64,000 nucleotides of DNA from Oxynema aestuarii AP17 (GCF_012295525.1 NZ_CP051167.1:5941299-6005298); one strand, 5' to 3'. Counted from the first letter of the stretch, positions 3,381 to 58,617 are shown. Notes: a model not told the origin generated them from the sequence alone. Made by a program: numbers and translations.

Positions 3381-3400
3381 TCTACAATCTACAATCTACA
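3381..3400. repeat. Tandem heptamer CTACAAT x3 immediately upstream of the mobA start codon.
   Basis: actctacaatctacaatctacaATG. Each unit resembles a -10 hexamer. Confidence 0.6.
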
Positions 3401-4009
3401 ATGCTCAAAAATCGCCTCACTGCCTTGGTTTTAGCGGGCGGTTCGAGTTCGCGGATGGGGCAGGACAAAGCCCTCTTAACTGTTGGAGGTCGGACATTTT
3501 TGCAGAAAGTCTGCGAAGTCGCGCGCCAGTGTTGCGATCGCGTCTGCATCCTGACCCCGTGGCCCGAACGCTATCAATTTTTAAATGAATTGCCCTCATG
3601 GGGAGCAGGGGAGATCGCCTTTCTCGACGAACTCCATCCCGGAGAAGGACCGTTAGTGGCGTTATGCGACGGTTTGGCGCAGGTCGAGAGCGAGTGGGTA
3701 TTGTTGCTGGCGTGCGATTTGCCGTTCTTGGACGGGGCGATCGTGGCACGCTGGGCCGCCCAATTAGATGCCCTTTCCCCGGAGATTCTGGCGTCGGTTC
3801 CGCAACAGGACAGTTTGTGGCAGCCGACATGTGGTTTTTACCGATCGCCGATTCTACCGCACCTGCAAGGGTTTGTCGCTCGGGGCGGGCGATCGTTCCA
3901 ACGGGGGTTGAGGGAGCTTCCGGTGCAGGCGATCGCCTTGAACTCAGCCGAGTCACAAATGTTGCTTAATGTCAATACCCCGGAAGCGTTTCGATCGCTG
4001 CAAAATTAG
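3401..4009 (+). CDS. mobA: Molybdenum cofactor guanylyltransferase MobA.
   Basis: The N-terminus carries LTALVLAGGSSSRMGQDKALL, the MobA nucleotide-binding signature. The length is about 200 aa. Confidence 0.8.
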   Translation: MLKNRLTALVLAGGSSSRMGQDKALLTVGGRTFLQKVCEVARQCCDRVCILTPWPERYQFLNELPSWGAGEIAFLDELHPGEGPLVALCDGLAQVESEWVLLLACDLPFLDGAIVARWAAQLDALSPEILASVPQQDSLWQPTCGFYRSPILPHLQGFVARGGRSFQRGLRELPVQAIALNSAESQMLLNVNTPEAFRSLQN

Positions 4010-5066: not shown

Positions 5067-5332
5067 ATGGGGGGTCTGGGCGATCGCCCTTTGCCTGCCT
5101 TCGCGCGGCGATCGGGCGATCGGCTTCCAATTCGGTCTGTTTTCTTGGATCGTTTTATATACTATATATAACTTTAGTTAATAAATATTTCAGATCGAAT
5201 TCACCGCCCTCACCCTCAGATTCATCGGCGACCCGCGATCGGCGATCGGTCGGAATGACGGGTGCTAAAACCCGCATTCCGACCGATCGTTACCGAAAAT
5301 ATCAGCGATGGAGAAAGGGTTCCCAAGCCCCT

Positions 5333-9473: not shown

Positions 9474-9618
9474 CGATCGTCGCGGATTCCCGCTTTTGTG
9501 GGAATCCATCACCTCGTTTATTCGCCAACCGATTCAGAACTCCTGTAGCGAACATCAATCATCTAGACGAGCGATCGAATCTAATAATCTAAAAAAATCT
9601 AAACTCTAAACGCCCAAC

Positions 9619-19283: not shown

Positions 19284-19697
19284 CTAAAACAGTTTGATGC
19301 CAATTTGTCCGTTAATTCCGCGAATGCTGTGATACCCGGCCCCGAAAAAAATATTGCCTTCCGGGAAGACCTGGACGCCTCCAGAAAAGGCAATGTCGCG
19401 ATCGTCGGAGTCGGGATCGTCGTAGAGTCCGACGCCGACATAACCGGATACTTGACTGACAAATGGCGGGTTGATGAATTTCATCACATCGACGCCGACG
19501 GTACTGTCATTGGTCAAGCCGAGTTCGGCGCCAAATCCGAGGGCGCGAACGCCGACGGAAAAGGTCGGTTCGCTGTCTTCAATACCGACGGATACCCAGG
19601 GACGGGGGACGAGTTGGGCGATCGCCTGTCGCTCGGATCCGAGCAGGATCGCGGCGATCGCCGCGATCGCCATACTGGTGTTGGCGAGGGATTTCAT
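19284..19697 (-). CDS. Small secreted, possibly outer-membrane beta-barrel protein.
   Basis: The signal peptide is MKSLANTSMAIAAIAAILLG. The protein is Gly-rich with alternating residues and ends ...IGIKLF, an aromatic terminal residue as in the OMP beta-signal. Confidence 0.5.
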   Translation of the reverse strand: MKSLANTSMAIAAIAAILLGSERQAIAQLVPRPWVSVGIEDSEPTFSVGVRALGFGAELGLTNDSTVGVDVMKFINPPFVSQVSGYVGVGLYDDPDSDDRDIAFSGGVQVFPEGNIFFGAGYHSIRGINGQIGIKLF

Positions 19698-19700
19698 TGG

Positions 19701-19727
19701 GGAGTTTGGAGTTTAGAGTTTAGATGG
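19701..19727. repeat. Tandem heptamer repeat (GGAGTTT/GAGTTTA, reverse complement TCTAAAC) directly upstream of the start of the 19284..19697 gene.
   Basis: ggagtttggagtttagagtttagatgg. Confidence 0.6.
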
Positions 19728-19763
19728 AGCAATATTATACTTTTTGACCGTTAAAATATCTTT

Positions 19764-36952: not shown

Positions 36953-37055
36953 GTCTACCGGGAGGATGTCGGCATGGCGCAGATTTTATCCCAAAAGTGG
37001 ACCACGGCAACTTAAACTCTAAAAGCTCAATAAAAGCTCAATATCCCTATCCAAA

Positions 37056-38954
37056 ATGCCTCCTCTCGAATGGAATACCCTACTACTTGTTGTCGCTTTA
37101 TTGGGATTGACGGCAATTTTAATGGGGGTTTATCGCCGTCGGTTTTATATCGTCCCCAAACCGCCGTTTTCAAAACGCCCCCCTCCGATTGCTGAAGACG
37201 ATGTAGGGCAATTACTCGATCGCGACAATCTCATTGCAGCACGAGCACTTTACCAACCGATCGCCCCGTGGACGGGTCGGCTGATTTTACCGACCCCGGA
37301 TCGCCGTCAACGGTCGGGGGCGATCGCCTTTGAAGTCCACAACAGCCCGCCGGAGTGGGCATTTTTGCGCGATCGCGTGGTGACGTTGAAATGGAGAGAC
37401 ACGCCGGAAGTTCGCGATTACCTGCAACAAGTCACGGTGGATCTGCGCTTCGGTCCTCAACTCAAACTGGCGCGGAAACTCGGGGCGATCGTCCCGAAGC
37501 GCCTCGACGGGTGGGATCGGGTCGGACCGTTGGAATCGTTGGCGGGGGGACGACCGGAAAACGATGTCGCGGTCAAACTGTGCGATCCGCAGGTCGAAAA
37601 AGACGCAGAGGCGATCGCCTTGACGATCGATCGCGAACCGATCCAAATAGCGGGTCGGTTGAAAGCCTTAGTCACGTTAATTCAACGGTTAGAAGCAGGG
37701 GAGAGCGATCGCTTTTTAGTACGTCACTACGATCGCGAGACCGGAGGATTCGACGGCCCGTTCGAGGCGATCGCCATTCCCCAAGTTCCGCGCAACCGTC
37801 AGGGAGTGTATCCCTCTACGAATCGGGATTTAGAACGATCGCCGTTCAATGCAAGCGGTTGGTACGTTTACGGGAATCGAGAGGCGGACGGGATCTTTGT
37901 GGTCGAAGCGATCGAACCGCGCGCCCTGACTTGGGTGCAATGCGATCGCGCGATCGTCACGGCTAAAGCGGCGATCGCCCATTTACGAAAGCACAACTGG
38001 TCCGATACTGCGGCGAAAAAAGGCAGGGGGTCGGCGGTGTTATTGGATACGACCTCGGAAGGACCGCAAGGGGCGATCGCGCGGTGGCGAGGGGGCGATC
38101 GCGCGATCGTCATCCATCTCTTCGGCGGAATCGGCGGTCAAAACGCCGAACCCGCGCCCTTGGGTCTAGTGACGGGTCATTTTGCCTACGGTTTCGCCAC
38201 GGCGATCGAAGATTCGTTTACCGGAGAATTGCGCTTCGCGATCGAATATCGCCAAATTTACGCCCACAATCGCGAAGGCATTATTTCCGGGGCGATCGAT
38301 TGGTCCGAGTACATGGGCAATTTGCGCCGGGGATGGTTGGGGTTGCGGCCCGTATCCGATATTTTGGTCAAATTCGAGACCGTGACCGAAGCGTTTGAGT
38401 TTGACGCGATCGAACTGTCGCCGATCGCCTATCTCGACCGGGAATTGACGACGATGTGCGCCCGCTACCGAACCGGAGACGGGACGGGGGTTTCCCTGGT
38501 CAATCCGGCGAGTTCGTGCGTGCAGGACTCGAATCAGGCGCTTTACGTCACCATCAAACGTCTGGAAGAGGCGATCGCCACCAGCGCCCCGATTCAAAAT
38601 TGGCTGGCGCGCCACCTCGACCACCCGCAAAGGGTACAACTGAGTCAATTAGACGATTTAGCGAAAGTTCTCGAACGCAATCTCGTTCCGTTCGGTATCG
38701 TACAGCCCGACTGGCGGCGAAATGTCGAGCGAGTGGCGGCGAGTCGGGGATCTAAAGACCCGATCGCCGTGTTGCTCAAAACGATCGCCACCTGGCGGAC
38801 CTTGCTCCCCCGTCGCGCCCACGACGAAATTGCCGCCATTTTGCTCAAACGGGGGGCCGCTTTGTGGATTTTGCGAACCAATCAGATCGGCGGCTTCGAT
38901 CCGGAGATCTTGCCGGAAGCACCGACGGCGTTACTCGGGCCTCGCCTGCGCTAG
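37056..38954 (+). CDS. Large conserved hypothetical membrane-anchored protein.
   Basis: An N-terminal TM helix LLLVVALLGLTAILMGVY is followed by a 600-aa soluble region. I recognise no family. Confidence 0.6.
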   Translation: MPPLEWNTLLLVVALLGLTAILMGVYRRRFYIVPKPPFSKRPPPIAEDDVGQLLDRDNLIAARALYQPIAPWTGRLILPTPDRRQRSGAIAFEVHNSPPEWAFLRDRVVTLKWRDTPEVRDYLQQVTVDLRFGPQLKLARKLGAIVPKRLDGWDRVGPLESLAGGRPENDVAVKLCDPQVEKDAEAIALTIDREPIQIAGRLKALVTLIQRLEAGESDRFLVRHYDRETGGFDGPFEAIAIPQVPRNRQGVYPSTNRDLERSPFNASGWYVYGNREADGIFVVEAIEPRALTWVQCDRAIVTAKAAIAHLRKHNWSDTAAKKGRGSAVLLDTTSEGPQGAIARWRGGDRAIVIHLFGGIGGQNAEPAPLGLVTGHFAYGFATAIEDSFTGELRFAIEYRQIYAHNREGIISGAIDWSEYMGNLRRGWLGLRPVSDILVKFETVTEAFEFDAIELSPIAYLDRELTTMCARYRTGDGTGVSLVNPASSCVQDSNQALYVTIKRLEEAIATSAPIQNWLARHLDHPQRVQLSQLDDLAKVLERNLVPFGIVQPDWRRNVERVAASRGSKDPIAVLLKTIATWRTLLPRRAHDEIAAILLKRGAALWILRTNQIGGFDPEILPEAPTALLGPRLR

Positions 38955-42144: not shown

Positions 42145-42308
42145 GAGGATTAAGAACAATCTTAAGACTGTCGTATCGAACGCTACGACCCCGTTAGCGC
42201 AGCGACGCCGACCGGCGTTAGGGGAGGCTGAGGTTGTCGGACTGGGCTGATTTCCGTGTCCCTCGTCCCCAACGCCTCTTCCGGATTGAGACTATACGCG
42301 ATCGCCTT

Positions 42309-43349
42309 ATGACTTTTTCGACTAAAAAGAGCGCCGCTTTACACGAGAGCTTGTCTAATTTGAAAACTCATCTCCTCGGTTTAGCTCAAAGCGAAACCTT
42401 TTTCTACATCCTCAAGCGATTATTACAAGCGCTCTTGACGCTGTTTCTCGCCTCCGCTTTGAGTTTTTTTATCATTCAATTAGCCCCTGGAGATTATTTA
42501 GATAACCTCCGTCAAAATCCCCAAATTTCCAAAGAAACTCTCGACCAACTTCAAGCTCGATTCGGCTTGGACCGATCGCCGATCGCTCAATATTTTCTCT
42601 GGCTGAAACAAGTCCTGACCCAAGGCGATTTTGGCACCAGTTTCGTCTACCGTCGCCCCGTCGCCGAACTCCTCTGGGAACGCATCCCCAATACCCTCTT
42701 ACTCTCGATTTCATCCCTCCTGCTCACTTGGGCGATCGCCCTCCCCCTCGGTATCGTCGGCGCCGTCAATCAAAATCGCTGGCTCGATCGCGTCCTGCGC
42801 GTCCTCAGCTATACCGGACAAGGGTTTCCCAGCTTCATCACCGCCTTACTCCTCCTCCTGTTCGCCCAAATCACCTCCCCCCTCTTCCCCGTCGGCGACA
42901 TGCGCAGCGTCTACCACGACCAACTCACCCCATTGGGTCAAATCGTCGATATCGCTTGGCACATGATTTTACCGACTCTCGCCCTCAGTATCACCAGTTT
43001 TGCAGGATTGCAGCGCATCACGCGCGGCGAATTACTCGACGTTCTGCGCCAAGAGTACATCCAAACTGCCCGCGCTAAAGGTTTACCAGAAAATCGCGTG
43101 ATCTACGTCCATGCTTTACGCAATGCGGTCAATCCTTTAATCACTCTCTTGGGTTTTGAGTTTGCCAGTTTGCTCGGCGGTGCATTTATTGCTGAATTTT
43201 TCTTTAACTGGCCCGGGTTGGGGCGCTTGATTTTACAAGCGGTTCAATCCCAAGATATTTATTTAGTTATGGCCAGTTTGATGATGGGAGGCATGATGTT
43301 AATTGTCGGTAATTTATTGGCTGATTTCAGAAGTGTTGAACGGTACTAA
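42309..43349 (+). CDS. ABC transporter permease, DppB/OppB type, 3' end replaced by IS sequence.
   Basis: It has multiple TM segments and the EAA loop YIQTARAKGLPENRVI. The last seven codons (RSVERY*) are encoded by the left end of the IS4-family element. Confidence 0.8.
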   Translation: MTFSTKKSAALHESLSNLKTHLLGLAQSETFFYILKRLLQALLTLFLASALSFFIIQLAPGDYLDNLRQNPQISKETLDQLQARFGLDRSPIAQYFLWLKQVLTQGDFGTSFVYRRPVAELLWERIPNTLLLSISSLLLTWAIALPLGIVGAVNQNRWLDRVLRVLSYTGQGFPSFITALLLLLFAQITSPLFPVGDMRSVYHDQLTPLGQIVDIAWHMILPTLALSITSFAGLQRITRGELLDVLRQEYIQTARAKGLPENRVIYVHALRNAVNPLITLLGFEFASLLGGAFIAEFFFNWPGLGRLILQAVQSQDIYLVMASLMMGGMMLIVGNLLADFRSVERY

Positions 43350-44503
43350 TGAATTAGCATAAAATAGATACAAGAATCCTATGAAAAGCTGATTTCAGTG
43401 ATGGAAAACTAGCTCTCTAAACCAGTGGACATAACTAATCTTTTCACACATAAAAGCCTGTAAATATCGCAACTTATCTAATAATGATGAACCCCATTCT
43501 TGGTTAATTTTTACTAATTTTAAAATTAGATATCCGATTAAACAGCAATAAATCTGGATTTCCATTCCATTCACATTTTTCGTGATAAATTTATCCAACT
43601 TTAAGTGCATTTTCAAGAACTTCCACAGCAATTCAATTTGCCAGCGTAGTCGATAAAATTCACCAATTTCTTCGTTACTTATTCCTCCTTCTCCTGTCTC
43701 TGGCAAATTCGTCACTAAGCGAAATTCAGTTTTTTCTTCCCGGTCGCAAAACATTACTACTCTTCCTTGTACTTGTGCTGTTCCTGTCCCCATTAAATAT
43801 TCCCCATTCTCTAACATTTCTAATTTAATGTTTTTTCGGATTCTCAAGACGAAGTAGCGATTTTTTTGAGCTTGAAGTTGGGCAATTCTTTCTAAGCTGC
43901 AAAAACCTCTATCCATTACGGCGACTCCGTTTTCCGGCGTGGCTTCTATCGTTTCATTTCCATATTTGCTATCGTGTCCTTGACCCAAATGAATTGATAT
44001 TCCTCCTGGGTTTCCTGTCACTAAGTTAATGCCACTAAACAGTTTCAATTGGTGATATCCTTGATGCCATAAGAGTTTACTCGTCAAAGTGATAATGGTT
44101 GAATCTAAAGGAAATATCATCAACTCTTTATCTGAATTTTGGGATTTTTTGGCTACTTCTTTTTTCAATTCATCCCACAATCGATGAAAAACTTCTGGAC
44201 TACGAGTTTTACTGGCTTTTGAGAAGGTTGATATATCTACGGATTCTCCGCGAATATTTAGTCTTTTAAACAAACTTCTCATCGTTGTTTGACTCTGGTC
44301 TAAAATGAAATTTAGCCAAATTGAGACAAACTTGAAAGTGTCTAGTACTGGATAATCGTCTTGGGGCAGATGACTTAGATGTTTTTGGAGAATTTCAGGA
44401 AAGTTTGATACAATCATTGTTAAGTATTTATCGAAATATTGCCCCTATTTTACTTGATTAGGGACTTTTTTTGTCAAATTTCTCTTAACATTCAACACTT
44501 CTG
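43328..44503. mobile_element. IS4-family insertion sequence (1176 bp) with 13-bp perfect terminal inverted repeats and 9-bp target-site duplication.
   Basis: The left IR is CAGAAGTGTTGAA (43328-43340). The right IR is TTCAACACTTCTG (44491-44503). The TSD GGCTGATTT lies at 43319-43327 and 44504-44512. The interior is AT-rich. Confidence 0.8.
43395..44417 (-). CDS. IS4-family DDE transposase.
   Basis: The 340-aa product has the C-terminal Y-x2-R-x3-E-x6-K motif (YRLRWQIELLWKFLK) typical of IS4-type transposases. Confidence 0.85.
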   Translation of the reverse strand: MIVSNFPEILQKHLSHLPQDDYPVLDTFKFVSIWLNFILDQSQTTMRSLFKRLNIRGESVDISTFSKASKTRSPEVFHRLWDELKKEVAKKSQNSDKELMIFPLDSTIITLTSKLLWHQGYHQLKLFSGINLVTGNPGGISIHLGQGHDSKYGNETIEATPENGVAVMDRGFCSLERIAQLQAQKNRYFVLRIRKNIKLEMLENGEYLMGTGTAQVQGRVVMFCDREEKTEFRLVTNLPETGEGGISNEEIGEFYRLRWQIELLWKFLKMHLKLDKFITKNVNGMEIQIYCCLIGYLILKLVKINQEWGSSLLDKLRYLQAFMCEKISYVHWFRELVFHH

Positions 44504-44504
44504 G

Positions 44505-44561
44505 GCTGATTTATTACTCAAAGCCGTCGATCCTCGCATTAAGTTGAGCAATCTTAAATGA
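44505..44561 (+). other. Displaced native 3' end of the permease gene (ADLLLKAVDPRIKLSNLK*).
   Basis: It reads in frame from the right TSD copy. The DPRI motif matches the C-terminus of the paralogous permease (...YIDPRIRY). Confidence 0.7.
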
Positions 44562-44798
44562 AATTTGAGGTGAGGACAGTTAAAAGCTAAAAGGGTTGAT
44601 TTTTCAAGTTGAAACAACAAGAAAAATGATGATTTTTTGAACAATAAAACATTGCTGCCTGTAGCCATTTTTAAAGGACCATATAGCAATCGTAAATCGG
44701 TTGTAAAATTTAGGGCTTTCTGGGGACAGGGAACTGCCGTTTTCCTAAGGGGATTTGGCGACTTTCCCGGGTCGATCTCAGATTCAATTGAGGATTGC

Positions 44799-44822
44799 TA
44801 TAAAATCTAAAATCTAAAATTC
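44799..44822. repeat. Tandem heptamer repeat (CTAAAAT x3) directly upstream of the start codon at 44829.
   Basis: ctataaaatctaaaatctaaaattcc. Confidence 0.7.
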
Positions 44823-44828
44823 CCAAAA

Positions 44829-45125
44829 ATGTTATCGCAAACTTATTATTTAGTTCGTTCTAAAGTAGACGGGCAATATTTAACCGCCAATCCCGATCGC
44901 CCGTCAGAACAAGTCAATAAGATAAGTTATCTGCTATTATTTTCAGAACATTTTGACGCTTTAACTTATCTGAATAAATATGGGGAAGATTTGCGCGATC
45001 GCCTCGCCGTAGAATCGATCCCCGGTTCGCAACTTCCCGGACTGCTCAAACGTTGGAGTTATTCGGGAATTGCGATCGTTCGCGATCCACTTTTACCTCA
45101 AGTTGAGTTTTTAGAAATGACTTGA
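44829..45125 (+). CDS. Small conserved hypothetical protein.
   Basis: A 98-aa ORF preceded by the heptamer repeats. Confidence 0.45.
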   Translation: MLSQTYYLVRSKVDGQYLTANPDRPSEQVNKISYLLLFSEHFDALTYLNKYGEDLRDRLAVESIPGSQLPGLLKRWSYSGIAIVRDPLLPQVEFLEMT

Positions 45126-45184: not shown

Positions 45185-45330
45185 CATTTAGAGCCCCCTA
45201 AATCTCCCTTAAAAATCCCCCTAAATCCCCCTTAAAAAGGGGGACTTTCCTCGTTCCCCCCGAAATCCCCCCTTCGCCCCCCTTTCAAAGGGGGGTTGGG
45301 GGGATTGGGGGATCGGCACTGTTGTACCTC
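45185..45330. repeat. C5-6/G5-6 nested-palindrome repeat cluster (MITE-like).
   Basis: There are successive CCCCC(C)-AT-GGGGG(G) hairpins, for example CCCCCTTAAAAAGGGGG and AATCCCCCC-ttcg-CCCCCCTTT-c-AAAGGGGGG-tt-GGGGGGATT. The same architecture recurs inside tnpB at 60468-60513. Confidence 0.7.
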
Positions 45331-45382: not shown

Positions 45383-46082
45383 TTAGTCATTTTCTCCAGA
45401 GGCGATCGCCTCCAAACTTTCACGATCGCCGATCGTGATTTTGCCGCCGCGACGGTAGGTAATCGCGGGTTTCATAGTTTTAATTAAGCGCACGCATTCT
45501 TCATAAGTAATCCCGACGGTGCGCGCCATTCGATAGTAAGATAACTCAATTTTCAATAGTTCTCCCCCCGGAACGCGATCGGTACCGTGGAGGGTGGCAA
45601 AATAAAGAATTAAGCGCGCCAAACGAACGATCGCCCGTTCCGAAACCAAACCGTGTACGGTGTCGTGTAACTGCTGCAAACGGCGGTTAAAAACGACTAA
45701 TAAACGCAATGCCAATTCTGGATTTTGGGCGATCGCGTCGAGCAATCCCTGACGGTCGAGCAGCAGCACTTGAGTATCACATAAAGCGATCGCCGTCGCC
45801 GGAGCGCTGCGATCGCCAAATAACGCCGGAGCGGCAAAAATTTCGCCAGAATGAATATTCCGTAAAATTGTTTCTTTTCCGGTTGGAGCAATTTTTTTAA
45901 CTTGCAATTCTCCCTCGATTAAAGCGTGTAAAGCTTCCGGGAGGCGATCGCCTTCATGAATGACAATTTCGCCACTGTGATAGTCTTGAATGCGCGCGTG
46001 GGGTTGCAACCGTTGCAGTTCGGCGGGTTCCAACCCACTAAAAACCGCAATCTTTGCTAATGTTTCGACAGTCGCCTGCATG
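45383..46082 (-). CDS. Crp/Fnr-family transcriptional regulator (cNMP-binding domain plus HTH).
   Basis: An N-terminal cNMP-binding fold (FSGLEPAELQRL...GEIFAAPALF) is followed by a C-terminal HTH (YRMARTVGITYEECVRLIK). The start is set at MQATVETLAK. Confidence 0.8.
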
Positions 46083-46204
46083 GTCGAGCTTCCCGATTCA
46101 ATCGAGGCATTTTGAAACGATCGCCGCCGGGATCGACCCGATCGCGATCGGATCGAAGCACCGCCAAACAAGGCAAAAGCGCGATCGCATCGCTTTTGCC
46201 TTTT

Positions 46205-52790: not shown

Positions 52791-52924
52791 GCGGCGACGG
52801 GCTAAAAATTTGAGTTTAATTTTAGAATTGATGGGTTACACTTTTCGGCGATCGGGTTGGGTGGCGCTCAGGGGTTGGCGATCGCTGCCGAAGGATGCGT
52901 ACACCACAGCCTGTTGAGTGGCAA

Positions 52925-52968
52925 TCTAAAATCTAAAACCTAAAACCTAAAATCTAAAATCTAAAATT
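52925..52968. repeat. Tandem heptamer repeat (CTAAAAT/CTAAAAC x6) directly upstream of the decarboxylase start codon.
   Basis: tctaaaatctaaaacctaaaacctaaaatctaaaatctaaaattcc. Confidence 0.75.
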
Positions 52969-52972
52969 CCTC

Positions 52973-54451
52973 GTGTCATCTACCCACAATCCTAAAAAAG
53001 CTCCCATTCTCGAAACCCTGCAAGCGTGTACTCAGCGTTGTCATGCGCCGTTTTATACCCCCGGTCACAAGCACGGGCGGGGAATGCCGCAGGAGTTGAC
53101 GGCGTGGCTGGGGTTGCCCGTATTTCAGGCGGACTTGCCGGAATTGCCGGAACTCGATAATTTGTTTTCGCCCCAAAGTGTGATTCAAGAAGCCCAGGAG
53201 TTGGCGGCAGAAACATTTGGAGCCGATCGCACCTGGTTTTTAGTGAATGGGTCTACCAGTGGTATTGTGGCGGCGATTTTGGCGACTTGCAGCAGTGGGG
53301 ACAAAATCATTTTGCCGCGCACGGTCCACCGTTCGGTGATTTCCGGTTTAATCCTTTCCGGGGCGATGCCGATTTTTATCAATCCGGAATACGATCCCGT
53401 GTGGGATCTGGCGTGGGGGATGGGGCCAGAGGCCGTGGAAGGGGCGTTAAACGAGCATCCGGACGCTAAAGCCGTGATGGTGGTTTATCCAACCTATCAG
53501 GGGGTTTGTAGTGACATCGAGGCGATCGCCCGTGTTTGCCGCGATCGCGACGTTCTCCTGTTGGCCGACGAAGCCCACGGACCTCATTTTACCTTTCATC
53601 GAGACTTGCCGATGGCGGCGTTGGCGGCGGGGGCGGATGTCAGCGTGCAGTCGATCCACAAAGTCCTCGGGGCGTTGACCCAAGCTTCGATGGTACACGT
53701 AAAAGGCGATCGCCTCGATCCGGACCGCCTCAGTGCGAGTTTGCAACTGCTGACATCGAGTAGTCCGAGTTACTTGCTGTTGGCGTCCCTGGATGCGGCG
53801 CGGCGACAGATGGCCCTCGACGGCGAGGCGCTGATGGAGGAGACGTTAAGATTAGGGCGATCGGCCCAAGCGCAAATTGCGGCGATTCCCGGGTTGAGGG
53901 TGTTGGACGGGCCGAGTGCGCCGACCTCGGGATTTACGGCACGCGATCGCACCCGCATCGTCGTCAACGTCAGCGAGTTGGGATTGAGCGGTTACGAAGC
54001 GGACGAGCTTCTCGACGAAAAATTCGGCGTAGTTTGCGAATTGCCGTTACCGAAAACGGTGACTTTTATCGTCAGTTTGGGCAATACTCAAACCGATATC
54101 GATCGCCTCGTAGCGGGATTGGAGGGGTTAGCTCGGCAGTTTCGACGGGAGGGCGCCTGTGGTGGCGATCGCCCCCCCCTCGCCTTTCCCGAATTGTCCC
54201 CGAAACCGTTGTGCCTGTCTCCACGGGATGCCTTTTTTGCTCCGGTGGAAACGATTCGCGCGATCGATGCCGTCAACCGCATCAGTGCGGAGTTGGTCTG
54301 TCCCTATCCGCCTGGAATTCCGATTTTGATGCCCGGAGAGGCGATTTGTGCAGCCGCGATCGATTACTTGCACGCCGTCAAGACCCGAGGAGCCCTGCTC
54401 ACCGGATGTAGCGATCCGAGCTTTCAAACCGTGCAAGTCGTGCAAGAGTAG
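52973..54451 (+). CDS. PLP-dependent Orn/Lys/Arg decarboxylase family protein.
   Basis: The N-terminus FYTPGHKHGRG and the major-domain motif WFLVNGSTSGIVAAI...SIHKVLG (PLP Lys) are present. Confidence 0.85.
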   Translation: MSSTHNPKKAPILETLQACTQRCHAPFYTPGHKHGRGMPQELTAWLGLPVFQADLPELPELDNLFSPQSVIQEAQELAAETFGADRTWFLVNGSTSGIVAAILATCSSGDKIILPRTVHRSVISGLILSGAMPIFINPEYDPVWDLAWGMGPEAVEGALNEHPDAKAVMVVYPTYQGVCSDIEAIARVCRDRDVLLLADEAHGPHFTFHRDLPMAALAAGADVSVQSIHKVLGALTQASMVHVKGDRLDPDRLSASLQLLTSSSPSYLLLASLDAARRQMALDGEALMEETLRLGRSAQAQIAAIPGLRVLDGPSAPTSGFTARDRTRIVVNVSELGLSGYEADELLDEKFGVVCELPLPKTVTFIVSLGNTQTDIDRLVAGLEGLARQFRREGACGGDRPPLAFPELSPKPLCLSPRDAFFAPVETIRAIDAVNRISAELVCPYPPGIPILMPGEAICAAAIDYLHAVKTRGALLTGCSDPSFQTVQVVQE

Positions 54452-54457
54452 GGAAGA

Positions 54458-54516
54458 TGAGTGAAAAGTGAAAAGTGAAAAGTTACTCTTCACTCACTAT
54501 TCACTATTCACTTTTT
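54458..54516. repeat. Heptamer tandem repeat GTGAAAA x3 followed by inverted TTCACT copies (hairpin-forming).
   Basis: gagtgaaaagtgaaaagtgaaaagttactcttcactcactattcactattcactttt. Confidence 0.7.
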
Positions 54517-58518: not shown

Positions 58519-58617
58519 AGCAAGTACAGTCTCATTTTCAAGCTTTTTTAGCGTACCAGTCAGCCCGAATTCTCCGCGATCGGGCGATCGGGCGATCGCC
58601 TGTGGTTTCAACGGGAT

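Follow-up and report, generated by a model that had tools for sequence, protein, structure and literature searches.

Start-codon-adjoining heptamer arrays in Oxynema aestuarii AP17, candidate slippage-generated translation leaders

We analysed a 64,000-nt stretch of DNA from Oxynema aestuarii AP17 (NZ_CP051167.1:5941299-6005298; this whole stretch is hereafter the window), in which short tandem arrays of 7-nt units stand immediately 5' of start codons. The main array (52923-52967, + strand) consists of TCTAAAA and CCTAAAA units with a period of 7 (6.4 copies, 94% match, Tandem Repeats Finder (TRF) score 76) and has a predicted paired fraction of 0.11. It ends 5 nt before the coding sequence of an Orn/Lys/Arg-family pyridoxal phosphate decarboxylase (52973-54451, + strand, GTG start, 492 aa). 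Altogether, five A-rich, G-poor arrays of the TCTAAAA, TCTAAAC and TCTACAA types adjoin start codons in the window, all in the sense orientation and with gaps of 0-8 nt. A preliminary description of the window had named six sites with heptamer arrays, and the sequence itself bears out all six, of which TRF reports all but the one at 9578-9612, an array that is real but imperfect.

Arrays and start codons in the window

The preliminary description had assigned the decarboxylase an ATG start 5 nt after the main array; the codon at this place is GTG (52973). It is the sole canonical start between the main array and a conserved APFYTPGHK motif, which lies 5' of the next ATG (53084). The NCBIfam alignments begin at residues 9-11, the decarboxylase orthologues likewise extend N-terminal of the APFY motif, and the 492-aa form is called in two related loci, L001 and L002. 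Because of the position of the motif upstream of the next ATG, the beginnings of the NCBIfam alignments and the agreement of two gene callers, we accept the array-adjacent GTG, which by homology is the correct decarboxylase start. Gene calls in two further related loci, L003 (7524-8891) and L004 (143-1510), give a 455-aa decarboxylase that starts 37 codons too late, at the ATG equivalent to window position 53084, so that the conserved APFYTPGHK region is cut off.

The other four start-proximal arrays are shorter or less regular. A TAAAATC array (44801-44820, + strand, 2.9 copies, 100% match by TRF) ends 8 nt, and not 7 nt as first described, before the ATG (44829) of an open reading frame (ORF) of 98 aa (44829-45125). 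The imperfect TCTAAAC-type array (9578-9612, + strand) reads TCTAATA-A-TCTAAAA-AAA-TCTAAAC-TCTAAAC; it is below the TRF threshold, yet it is clear by eye and includes one perfect TCTAAACTCTAAAC. This array lies 6 nt before the ATG (9619) of an ABC permease gene, within the 145-nt spacer that separates the permease gene from a substrate-binding-protein gene, and its predicted paired fraction is 0.14. On the - strand, a TCTAAAC-TCTAAAC-TCCAAAC array (19701-19727, given in the sense direction; TRF 19702-19724, 3.3 copies, 93% match) lies in the 66-nt spacer that follows lpxB, 3 nt ahead of the ATG (19697) of a 137-aa gene. A TCTACAA array (3381-3402, + strand, 3.1 copies, 100% match by TRF) occupies part of the 52-nt trpD-mobA spacer; it had been described as preceding mobA, and it runs into the mobA ATG (3401) itself. 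The MobA start was confirmed by profile NF002741 (residues 3-201 against profile positions 5-195 of 200), and that of the permease by a near end-to-end profile match. Decayed forms are also present: a CTAAAAT-type remnant (2249-2283, + strand) stands ~10 nt 5' of the trpD ATG (2293), and a TCTAAAA-like sequence with an 11-nt repeat (37011-37043, + strand) stands ~12 nt 5' of the ATG at 37056.

Every array in the window is intergenic. When periods 4-12 were scanned, arrays of at least 3 copies were found at period 7 alone, and the two-unit pattern TCTAAAMTCTAAAM, with up to 2 mismatches allowed, had 20 matches in the window against 1.5 expected (maximum 5 among 100 shuffles). Four of the five start-proximal arrays come after a co-directional gene, in spacers of 52, 145, 66 and 182 nt. 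A profile search revealed no common functional theme among the genes 3' of the window arrays, which include mobA, the ABC permease gene and the decarboxylase gene. None of the five array-preceded genes in the window has a Shine-Dalgarno (SD)-like 4-mer, the units holding no G or a single G, and four of the arrays have predicted paired fractions of 0.04-0.22, the mobA array one of 0.52. A search of the whole window against Rfam 15 at the gathering score returned no match.

The A-rich, G-poor strand is the sense strand directly 5' of starts

Since the window examples had been picked for adjoining starts, placement was measured in an independent sample. An exact scan of species-representative genomes for TAAAATCTAAAATCTAAAAT found at least 120 loci; all counts of sampled (TCTAAAA)n arrays given below refer to the matches listed in that scan. 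These come mostly from Microcoleus and in many cases from Nostocales, and also from Symploca, Lyngbya and Oscillatoria; a dozen are from Flavobacterium and other Bacteroidota, and a few from Acidobacteriota, Ignavibacteria, Planctomycetes and Oscillochloris. Among them, 107 arrays had sufficient flank, and an array was scored as near-start when an ORF of at least 100 aa began no more than 15 nt downstream. Near-start arrays numbered 43 on the TCTAAAA (sense) strand versus 2 on the opposite strand, and de-duplication by common flanking 12-mers left 42 versus 2 (binomial p = 1e-10). The sense-strand near-start share was 8/13 in Bacteroidota, 11/21 in Nostocales and 21/59 in Microcoleus and other non-heterocystous cyanobacteria, the bias pointing the same way in every group. 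The proposal in the preliminary description that the arrays are placed where a ribosome-binding site is expected is thus upheld by a non-random, strand-specific distribution (43 sense versus 2 antisense, p ~1e-10).

Two trivial explanations of this bias were rejected. Repeated counting of orthologous Microcoleus loci does not account for it, as the de-duplicated count shows. Nor do stop codons within the array produce artefactual ORF starts on one strand: either strand of the unit has stop codons in every frame, which makes the antisense count a fair control, and the MobA, permease and decarboxylase starts, confirmed independently by homology, also counter this artefact. The bias extends beyond the unit that was scanned for. 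In 0.91 Mb of related loci, we found 336 period-7 arrays of at least 3 copies, compared with 1-19 for each other period, and 172 arrays of other heptamer units, which had not been used for selecting the loci, adjoined starts 29 times on the A-rich strand versus 6 times on the T-rich strand. Taken together, these counts show a general rule, namely that the A-rich, G-poor strand is the sense strand, directly 5' of the start. In the sample, 33 of the 43 near-start arrays come after a co-directional gene 40-450 nt upstream. Such co-directional spacers make it very likely that the arrays are transcribed within operons, and this points to a role at the mRNA level rather than as promoters.

We further set 52 ATG starts preceded by arrays against 383 control starts of the same loci. 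The predicted unpaired probability over -20..+5 was 0.66 for array-preceded and 0.51 for control starts (p = 3e-12), and an SD-like 4-mer at -20..-4 was present at 1/52 versus 93/383 starts. Over -30..-1, the array-preceded leaders had an A fraction of 0.53 versus 0.37 and a G fraction of 0.05 versus 0.165 in the controls. The arrays do not qualify as SD sequences in the usual sense, which requires a purine-rich stretch of the GGAGG type, 4-12 nt upstream of the start, that is complementary to the 3' end of 16S rRNA.

Several other features of the sampled arrays were observed. Many of the Microcoleus loci (L016, L017, L049, L079, L094, L105, L110 and others) share a dispersed element that carries (TCTAAAA)4.5, flanked on the left by a conserved part containing a CCCCNG...CNGGGG hairpin ('aagcccccgcatttatccgtggggtc') and on the right by the conserved tail GAYTGAC; in copies with GAATGAC as the tail, a long ORF starts at the ATG within it. 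This element explains a peak of array length at 31-33 nt. Compound arrays, in which a TCTAAAA array passes directly into an array of a different heptamer, occur with TCCCGAC in Lyngbya (L019, ~6597 onward), with CCCCAGT/CACCAAT in Sphaerospermopsis (L027, L066) and with GGAAAAT in a metagenome-assembled genome of Acidobacteriota (L125 3281-3334). Inverted heptamer arrays are common as well, a TTTTGGA or TTTTAGA array often standing before a TCTAAAA array. Of the 107 sampled arrays, 23 were predicted to be at least 60% paired, and these were rarer near starts (6/43) than among the others (17/64).

Unit number, spacer replacement and the hairpin after the decarboxylase gene

To compare unit numbers between strains, four assemblies of relatives were recovered through exact matches to proteins encoded nearby (CbiT, MobA, a response regulator and FabZ), the exact decarboxylase sequence having given no match. 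One of them, L002, is Oxynema mangrovii CENA135 (GCA_016632315.1), 96.6% identical to the window; the other three are metagenome or SRA assemblies and are 99.4-99.8% identical to it. The decarboxylase array has 6 units in the window, L001 and L003 and 4 units in O. mangrovii, the difference being a clean 14-nt gap that removes both CCTAAAA units. The array before the 98-aa ORF has 2.9 units in the window versus 3.9 in O. mangrovii (+7 nt). In the 137-aa gene array, ~3 units in the window correspond to ~6 in the related loci L128 and L129. The between-strain comparison that the preliminary description had proposed therefore yielded whole 7-nt-unit differences at each of the three start-proximal arrays that could be set against an informative relative. 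The mobA and permease arrays were identical in strains at least 99.5% identical, a comparison that holds no diverged relative. Among the consensus assemblies at 99.4-99.8% identity, 4 of the 5 start-proximal arrays were identical in every assembly that covers them, and the fifth, at the 137-aa gene, varies only together with the presence or absence of a 6-kb segment. Orthologous Microcoleus arrays likewise differ by exactly one unit (7 nt). A protein-based rescan, which reached distant orthologues only, detected no array at decarboxylase orthologues of 56-63% identity. A metagenome scan for unit counts across populations, with the unique left flank plus the first unit as the query, gave 0 matches.

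The unit-step differences between strains, the absence of arrays in distant orthologues and the decayed remnants at trpD and 37056 support the idea that replication slippage both gives rise to the arrays and changes their length by whole 7-nt units, as the preliminary description had suggested. As judged by these sequence comparisons, array birth, 7-nt resizing and erosion are shown to happen on short evolutionary timescales. For strain typing, the array loci would be ready variable-number markers in Oxynema and Microcoleus.

At two genes, the array and the start codon have stayed together while the upstream DNA was replaced. In the spacer of the 98-aa ORF, the centre is unalignable between O. 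mangrovii and the window, and the array plus start codon are 97.8% identical. At the 137-aa gene, L128 (12577-18736) and L129, at 99.7% identity, carry a ~6-kb segment between lpxB and the 137-aa gene that is absent from the window (19698-19763). The segment encodes an RND efflux pump, a membrane-fusion protein, a response regulator and a histidine kinase, and in L128 the stop codon of the histidine kinase gene is the TAA of an array unit. The homology of the window to L128 and L129 starts inside the array, which is thus the right-hand junction. This position of the junction hints that arrays may act as recombination junctions. Upstream of the 98-aa ORF, the window also differs from O. mangrovii by an IS4-family insertion sequence (IS) of ~1.18 kb at 43328-44503 (transposase ORF 43395-44417, - strand). 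It disrupts the 3' end of an ABC permease gene, and the permease ORF in the window (42234-43349) terminates within the IS. At the junctions, L002 1-146 corresponds to window 43182-43327 and L002 138-247 to window 44504-44614, and the 9-bp overlap is consistent with a target-site duplication.

A different arrangement was found on the other side of the decarboxylase gene, where an inverted pair of heptamer arrays forms a 59-nt element (54456-54514, + strand). Its arms, AGTGAAA x3.4 (54460-54483) and TCACTAT x2.7 (54494-54512), both at 100% match by TRF, are diverged forms of one unit, AGTGAAA and AGTGAAT. The element starts 5 nt after the TAG stop of the decarboxylase gene and precedes the cbiT ATG by ~37 nt, and it is predicted to fold as a long A/U-rich hairpin followed by UUUUU (-29.8 kcal/mol, z = -2.6), with arms 0.80-0.88 paired. 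It is present or absent as a block: it is missing in L002 and in L004, an SRA assembly, and the decarboxylase-cbiT spacer measures 102 nt in the window versus 43 nt in O. mangrovii. The inverted GTGAAAA/TTCACT array that the preliminary description had reported between decarboxylase and cbiT is thus real, but it does not belong with the start-codon arrays among which it had been listed; by its sequence and predicted fold it is a 3'-of-gene hairpin, of an architecture different from that of the five start-codon leaders. With regard to an intrinsic (Rho-independent) terminator, which has a G+C-rich stem-loop before a U tract, the U tract is present and the stem is A/U-rich, and a consensus scan made no call on the + strand. 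By analogy with the hairpins of the short tandemly repeated repetitive (STRR) sequences between hupS and hupL, inverted array pairs of this kind could be intercistronic or 3' hairpins that stabilise or terminate a transcript. Neither the window nor ~130 kb of Oxynema loci contained a further copy of the hairpin, and no clear target-site duplication was seen at its junctions; we dropped a miniature inverted-repeat transposable element or other small mobile repeat as an explanation on these two grounds. The block may have arisen by template switching or by insertion.

Known heptamer repeats and the proposed leader role

The arrays are members of the known cyanobacterial class of STRR-like heptamer repeats, and the Oxynema host and the units are new to it. 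They have the features of heptanucleotide simple sequence repeats (SSRs) of the STRR-like kind: 2.7-6.4 tandem copies at 93-100% match, an intergenic position, an excess of period 7 and 7-nt polymorphism. The units of STRR1-3 of Mazel et al. 1990 are reported to be CCCCAGT, TTGGTCA and CAACAGT. They differ from the TCTAAAA, TCTAAAC, TCTACAA and AGTGAAA found here, and classical STRR1-3 were defined in heterocystous strains, whereas Oxynema is a non-heterocystous genus of Oscillatoriales. The likeness lies in the 7-bp non-coding tandem units, in the excess confined to period 7 and in the hairpin-forming inverted arrays between genes. The preliminary description had set the arrays beside STRR heptamers as differing from STRR1-3; the difference in units stands, but the apartness that it implied does not, because the two fall into one class (PMC4679880, PMC4692102, bioRxiv 10.1101/2022.06.06.494920). 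In PMC4679880, PMC4692102 and PMC2670836, STRRs are described as 7-bp tandem non-coding units with many loci per genome and several unit families. Mrazek 2007, as cited in PMC4679880 and PMC4692102, found heptamers over-represented in cyanobacterial intergenic DNA and proposed slippage. For the hupS-hupL STRR hairpins, PMC2670836 proposes transcript stabilisation, translational coupling or termination.

The closest precedents concern start-proximal repeats. MacGregor 2015 described TAACTGA repeats in marine Beggiatoaceae, some Cyanobacteria and Bacteroidetes, with 2-6 forward copies a few nt upstream of starts, overlapping the position at which a ribosome-binding site would be looked for and without an SD sequence; the downstream genes had no common theme, Cyanothece indels came in 7-nt steps, and a translational role was proposed (PMC4679880). 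The arrays studied here are similar in their forward start-proximal placement, the lack of an SD sequence, the 7-nt indels and the spread over Cyanobacteria and Bacteroidetes. They differ in unit sequence and in the Oxynema host, and only the GAYTGAC tail of the Microcoleus arrays resembles TAACTGA. What the present analysis adds to that work (PMC4679880) is a quantified antisense control and predicted accessibility. In Nostoc PCC 7120, a study of recF and recO reported (TTCAAAA)3-4 upstream of ~21 genes, and GAC(C/T)AAT x8 that overlaps the recO start and is found within 30 nt of at least 13 gene starts (bioRxiv 10.1101/2022.06.06.494920). The authors, Pradhan et al., noted A-rich repeats with non-canonical or distant SD sequences and suggested a translational role; reporter deletions had modest, context-dependent effects, and no mechanism was established (bioRxiv 10.1101/2022.06.06.494920). 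Those repeats and the Oxynema arrays are alike in being start-proximal and A-rich, and differ in units and organism. Rehm et al. 2015 described GGGGA(T/C)T in Nostoc and GGGAATC in Xanthomonas, for the most part 0-50 bp upstream of ORFs, in repeats whose non-coding strand is the G-rich one and whose lengths vary among close relatives (PMC4692102). They share the strand rule measured here, in that the G-poor strand is the sense strand; however, their units can form G-quadruplexes or i-motifs, whereas the Oxynema units have no G runs and are predicted to be unstructured.

We consider it somewhat more probable than an even chance (a probability of about 0.55) that the arrays are STRR-like heptanucleotide SSRs serving as a slippage-generated, SD-independent translation leader. 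Slippage would create and resize the arrays, with the A-rich, G-poor strand as the sense strand abutting the start codon. Once transcribed, an array would form a leader that is A-rich and unstructured, has no SD sequence and carries stops in every frame, and this leader may act as the translation-initiation region, probably through an SD-independent pathway that favours adenines and low structure and in which ribosomal protein S1 may take part. That pathway is prominent in Cyanobacteria and Bacteroidota, the two phyla in which the arrays concentrate. SD-independent, A-rich initiation regions have been reported in Bacteroidetes and some Cyanobacteria by Baez et al. 2019, who found that upstream adenines and low structure promote initiation (PMC6847099), and S1 is proposed to bind A/U-rich leaders (PMC6847099). 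Such leaders match the array leaders in composition and predicted accessibility, but they are not tandem repeats, and the A-3, A-6, A-12 and A-13 determinants (PMC6847099) are not consistently satisfied by the window arrays. Units would be added inside the array, whose last and often degenerate unit keeps its distance to the start codon. Adding or losing units would then alter leader length, and with the last unit fixed at the start codon it should tune expression modestly and not switch it on or off. The choice of SD-free start codons is only partly understood in Cyanobacteria and Bacteroidota, and start-abutting arrays with a ~20:1 strand bias in several phyla would offer a natural set of leaders differing only in unit number. 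For annotation, an array with stops in 3 frames followed by an ATG or GTG within ~10 nt is a useful marker of the true start, and here it decides for the GTG of the decarboxylase.

Several points weigh against the leader reading. Sixty percent of the sampled arrays are away from long ORF starts, and many Microcoleus copies are part of the dispersed element. The mobA array is predicted to be only about half unpaired. Arrays are not kept at deeper orthologous loci, and any function would therefore be dispensable or easily replaced. Low structure and the lack of an SD sequence are near-automatic in a G-poor, A-rich unit and do not constitute independent evidence of selection. With the earlier suggestion of a role in translation initiation, SD-free arrays that are predicted to be unstructured agree, and the role itself is one that we infer from position and predicted physical properties.

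The main rival reading is a neutral origin, in which slippage arrays are born from A-rich, low-complexity proto-repeats, such as SD-less leaders offer, and persist where they are harmless, without serving a function. In its favour, the leaders of control starts are A-rich and G-poor to begin with (A 0.37, G 0.165 over -30..-1), the arrays are evolutionarily labile and absent from distant decarboxylase orthologues, decayed remnants are present at trpD and at the gene at 37056, the downstream genes share no functional theme, and 60% of the sample occupies other intergenic positions. However, although no part of a spacer is more constrained than the initiation region, 40% of the arrays end no more than 15 nt from a start; the 21:1 strand bias is hard to obtain by neutral birth alone, intergenic DNA being AT-rich on both strands; and an array has stayed with its start codon despite replacement of the remaining spacer. 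The strand bias and the retention of arrays argue against pure neutrality, which we regard as possible but rather unlikely. A promoter function, with stacked -10-like elements giving leaderless or near-leaderless mRNAs, is the explanation that we find hardest to accept. TAAAAT, TACAAT and TAAACT do fit TAnnnT, such a hexamer occurs at every TCTAAAAT, TCTACAAT or TCTAAACT junction, and the last or penultimate hexamer ends 4-13 nt before the window start codons. Consensus scans, though, gave no sense-strand sigma-70 consensus with a -35 element in the arrays; in the sampled matches the distance from the last hexamer to the start is broad (1-9 nt), with a mode too short for a transcription start site; CCAAAAT, AATTACC and AATGACT follow the same placement rule and are not -10-like; and most arrays lie in the short co-directional spacers typical of operons.

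Recognition by a dedicated RNA- or DNA-binding protein, Csp-like or another single-strand-binding protein, that ties the genes into a co-regulated network has been put forward by MacGregor for TAACTGA repeats (PMC4679880) and by Pradhan et al. for Nostoc 7120 (bioRxiv 10.1101/2022.06.06.494920). It would agree with the recurrence of one heptamer unit at several unrelated window genes and of the TCTAAAA unit across phyla. We nevertheless judge it improbable, because many heptamer units follow one placement rule, as expected for an effect of composition or structure and not for sequence-specific recognition, no candidate protein was identified, and the array genes have no functional theme. Phase variation, also raised in the preliminary description, has its model in the (ATCTTTC)n repeat of Haemophilus influenzae hmw1A/hmw2A, a transcribed heptamer in the 5' untranslated region by which slippage grades expression (PMC12721329, PMC8262952). 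There, at least 11 units are present, the T/C-rich repeat and a G-rich arm together fold into a hairpin that RNase III cleaves, and the product is a surface adhesin under host selection (PMC12721329, PMC8262952). Frequent slippage could in the same manner switch or grade expression of the genes downstream of the Oxynema arrays, and the 7-nt steps in copy number between strains, together with the proven graded switch in H. influenzae, speak for it. None of the hmw features (at least 11 units, a hairpin with a partner arm, a surface adhesin) is seen at the Oxynema start-proximal arrays, however: these are short (3-6 units, versus at least 11 natural units at hmw), have no arm to pair with in a regulatory hairpin, are not part of the reading frame, are invariant at 4 of 5 sites in all covering assemblies at 99.4-99.8% identity, and precede housekeeping or metabolic genes (mobA, ABC permease, decarboxylase) instead of surface antigens. 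The slippage part of the earlier proposal is thus retained, on/off phase variation of the window arrays is not supported, and contingency loci of the hmw kind are decidedly improbable here.

A stronger form of the leader reading would treat (TCTAAAA)n-type arrays, and A-rich heptamer arrays at large, as a portable ribosome-recruitment module, selected and either convergent or horizontally spread in SD-poor phyla (among them Cyanobacteria, Bacteroidota, some Acidobacteriota and Chloroflexota), with the unit number setting the translation rate and the arrays serving as homology patches for swaps of upstream DNA. Patches of this kind would account for the loss of homology at the array's 5' edge at the 137-aa and 98-aa genes. 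We hold this stronger reading to be speculative and quite unlikely. A-tract DNA bending was set aside as an explanation of the arrays, since repeats spaced by 7 bp do not keep in phase with the turns of the helix.

Two further kinds of repeat were observed in the window. The HIP1 octamer GCGATCGC is very common throughout and forms short tandem runs of 8-9 nt, some within coding regions; such runs (for example 5107-5123, 19647-19671, 38073-38109 and 58576-58598) make up most of the non-heptamer TRF rows. At 45190-45315, between the convergent 98-aa ORF and the gene at 45383-46171, there are dense runs of C5-6 and G5-6, with CCCCCTAAATCCCCCTTAAAAAT x2 followed by GGGGGGTTGGGGGGATTGGGGGAT. This cluster could form multiple hairpins or i-motif/G-quadruplex structures and resembles the Nostoc GGGGATT heptamers.

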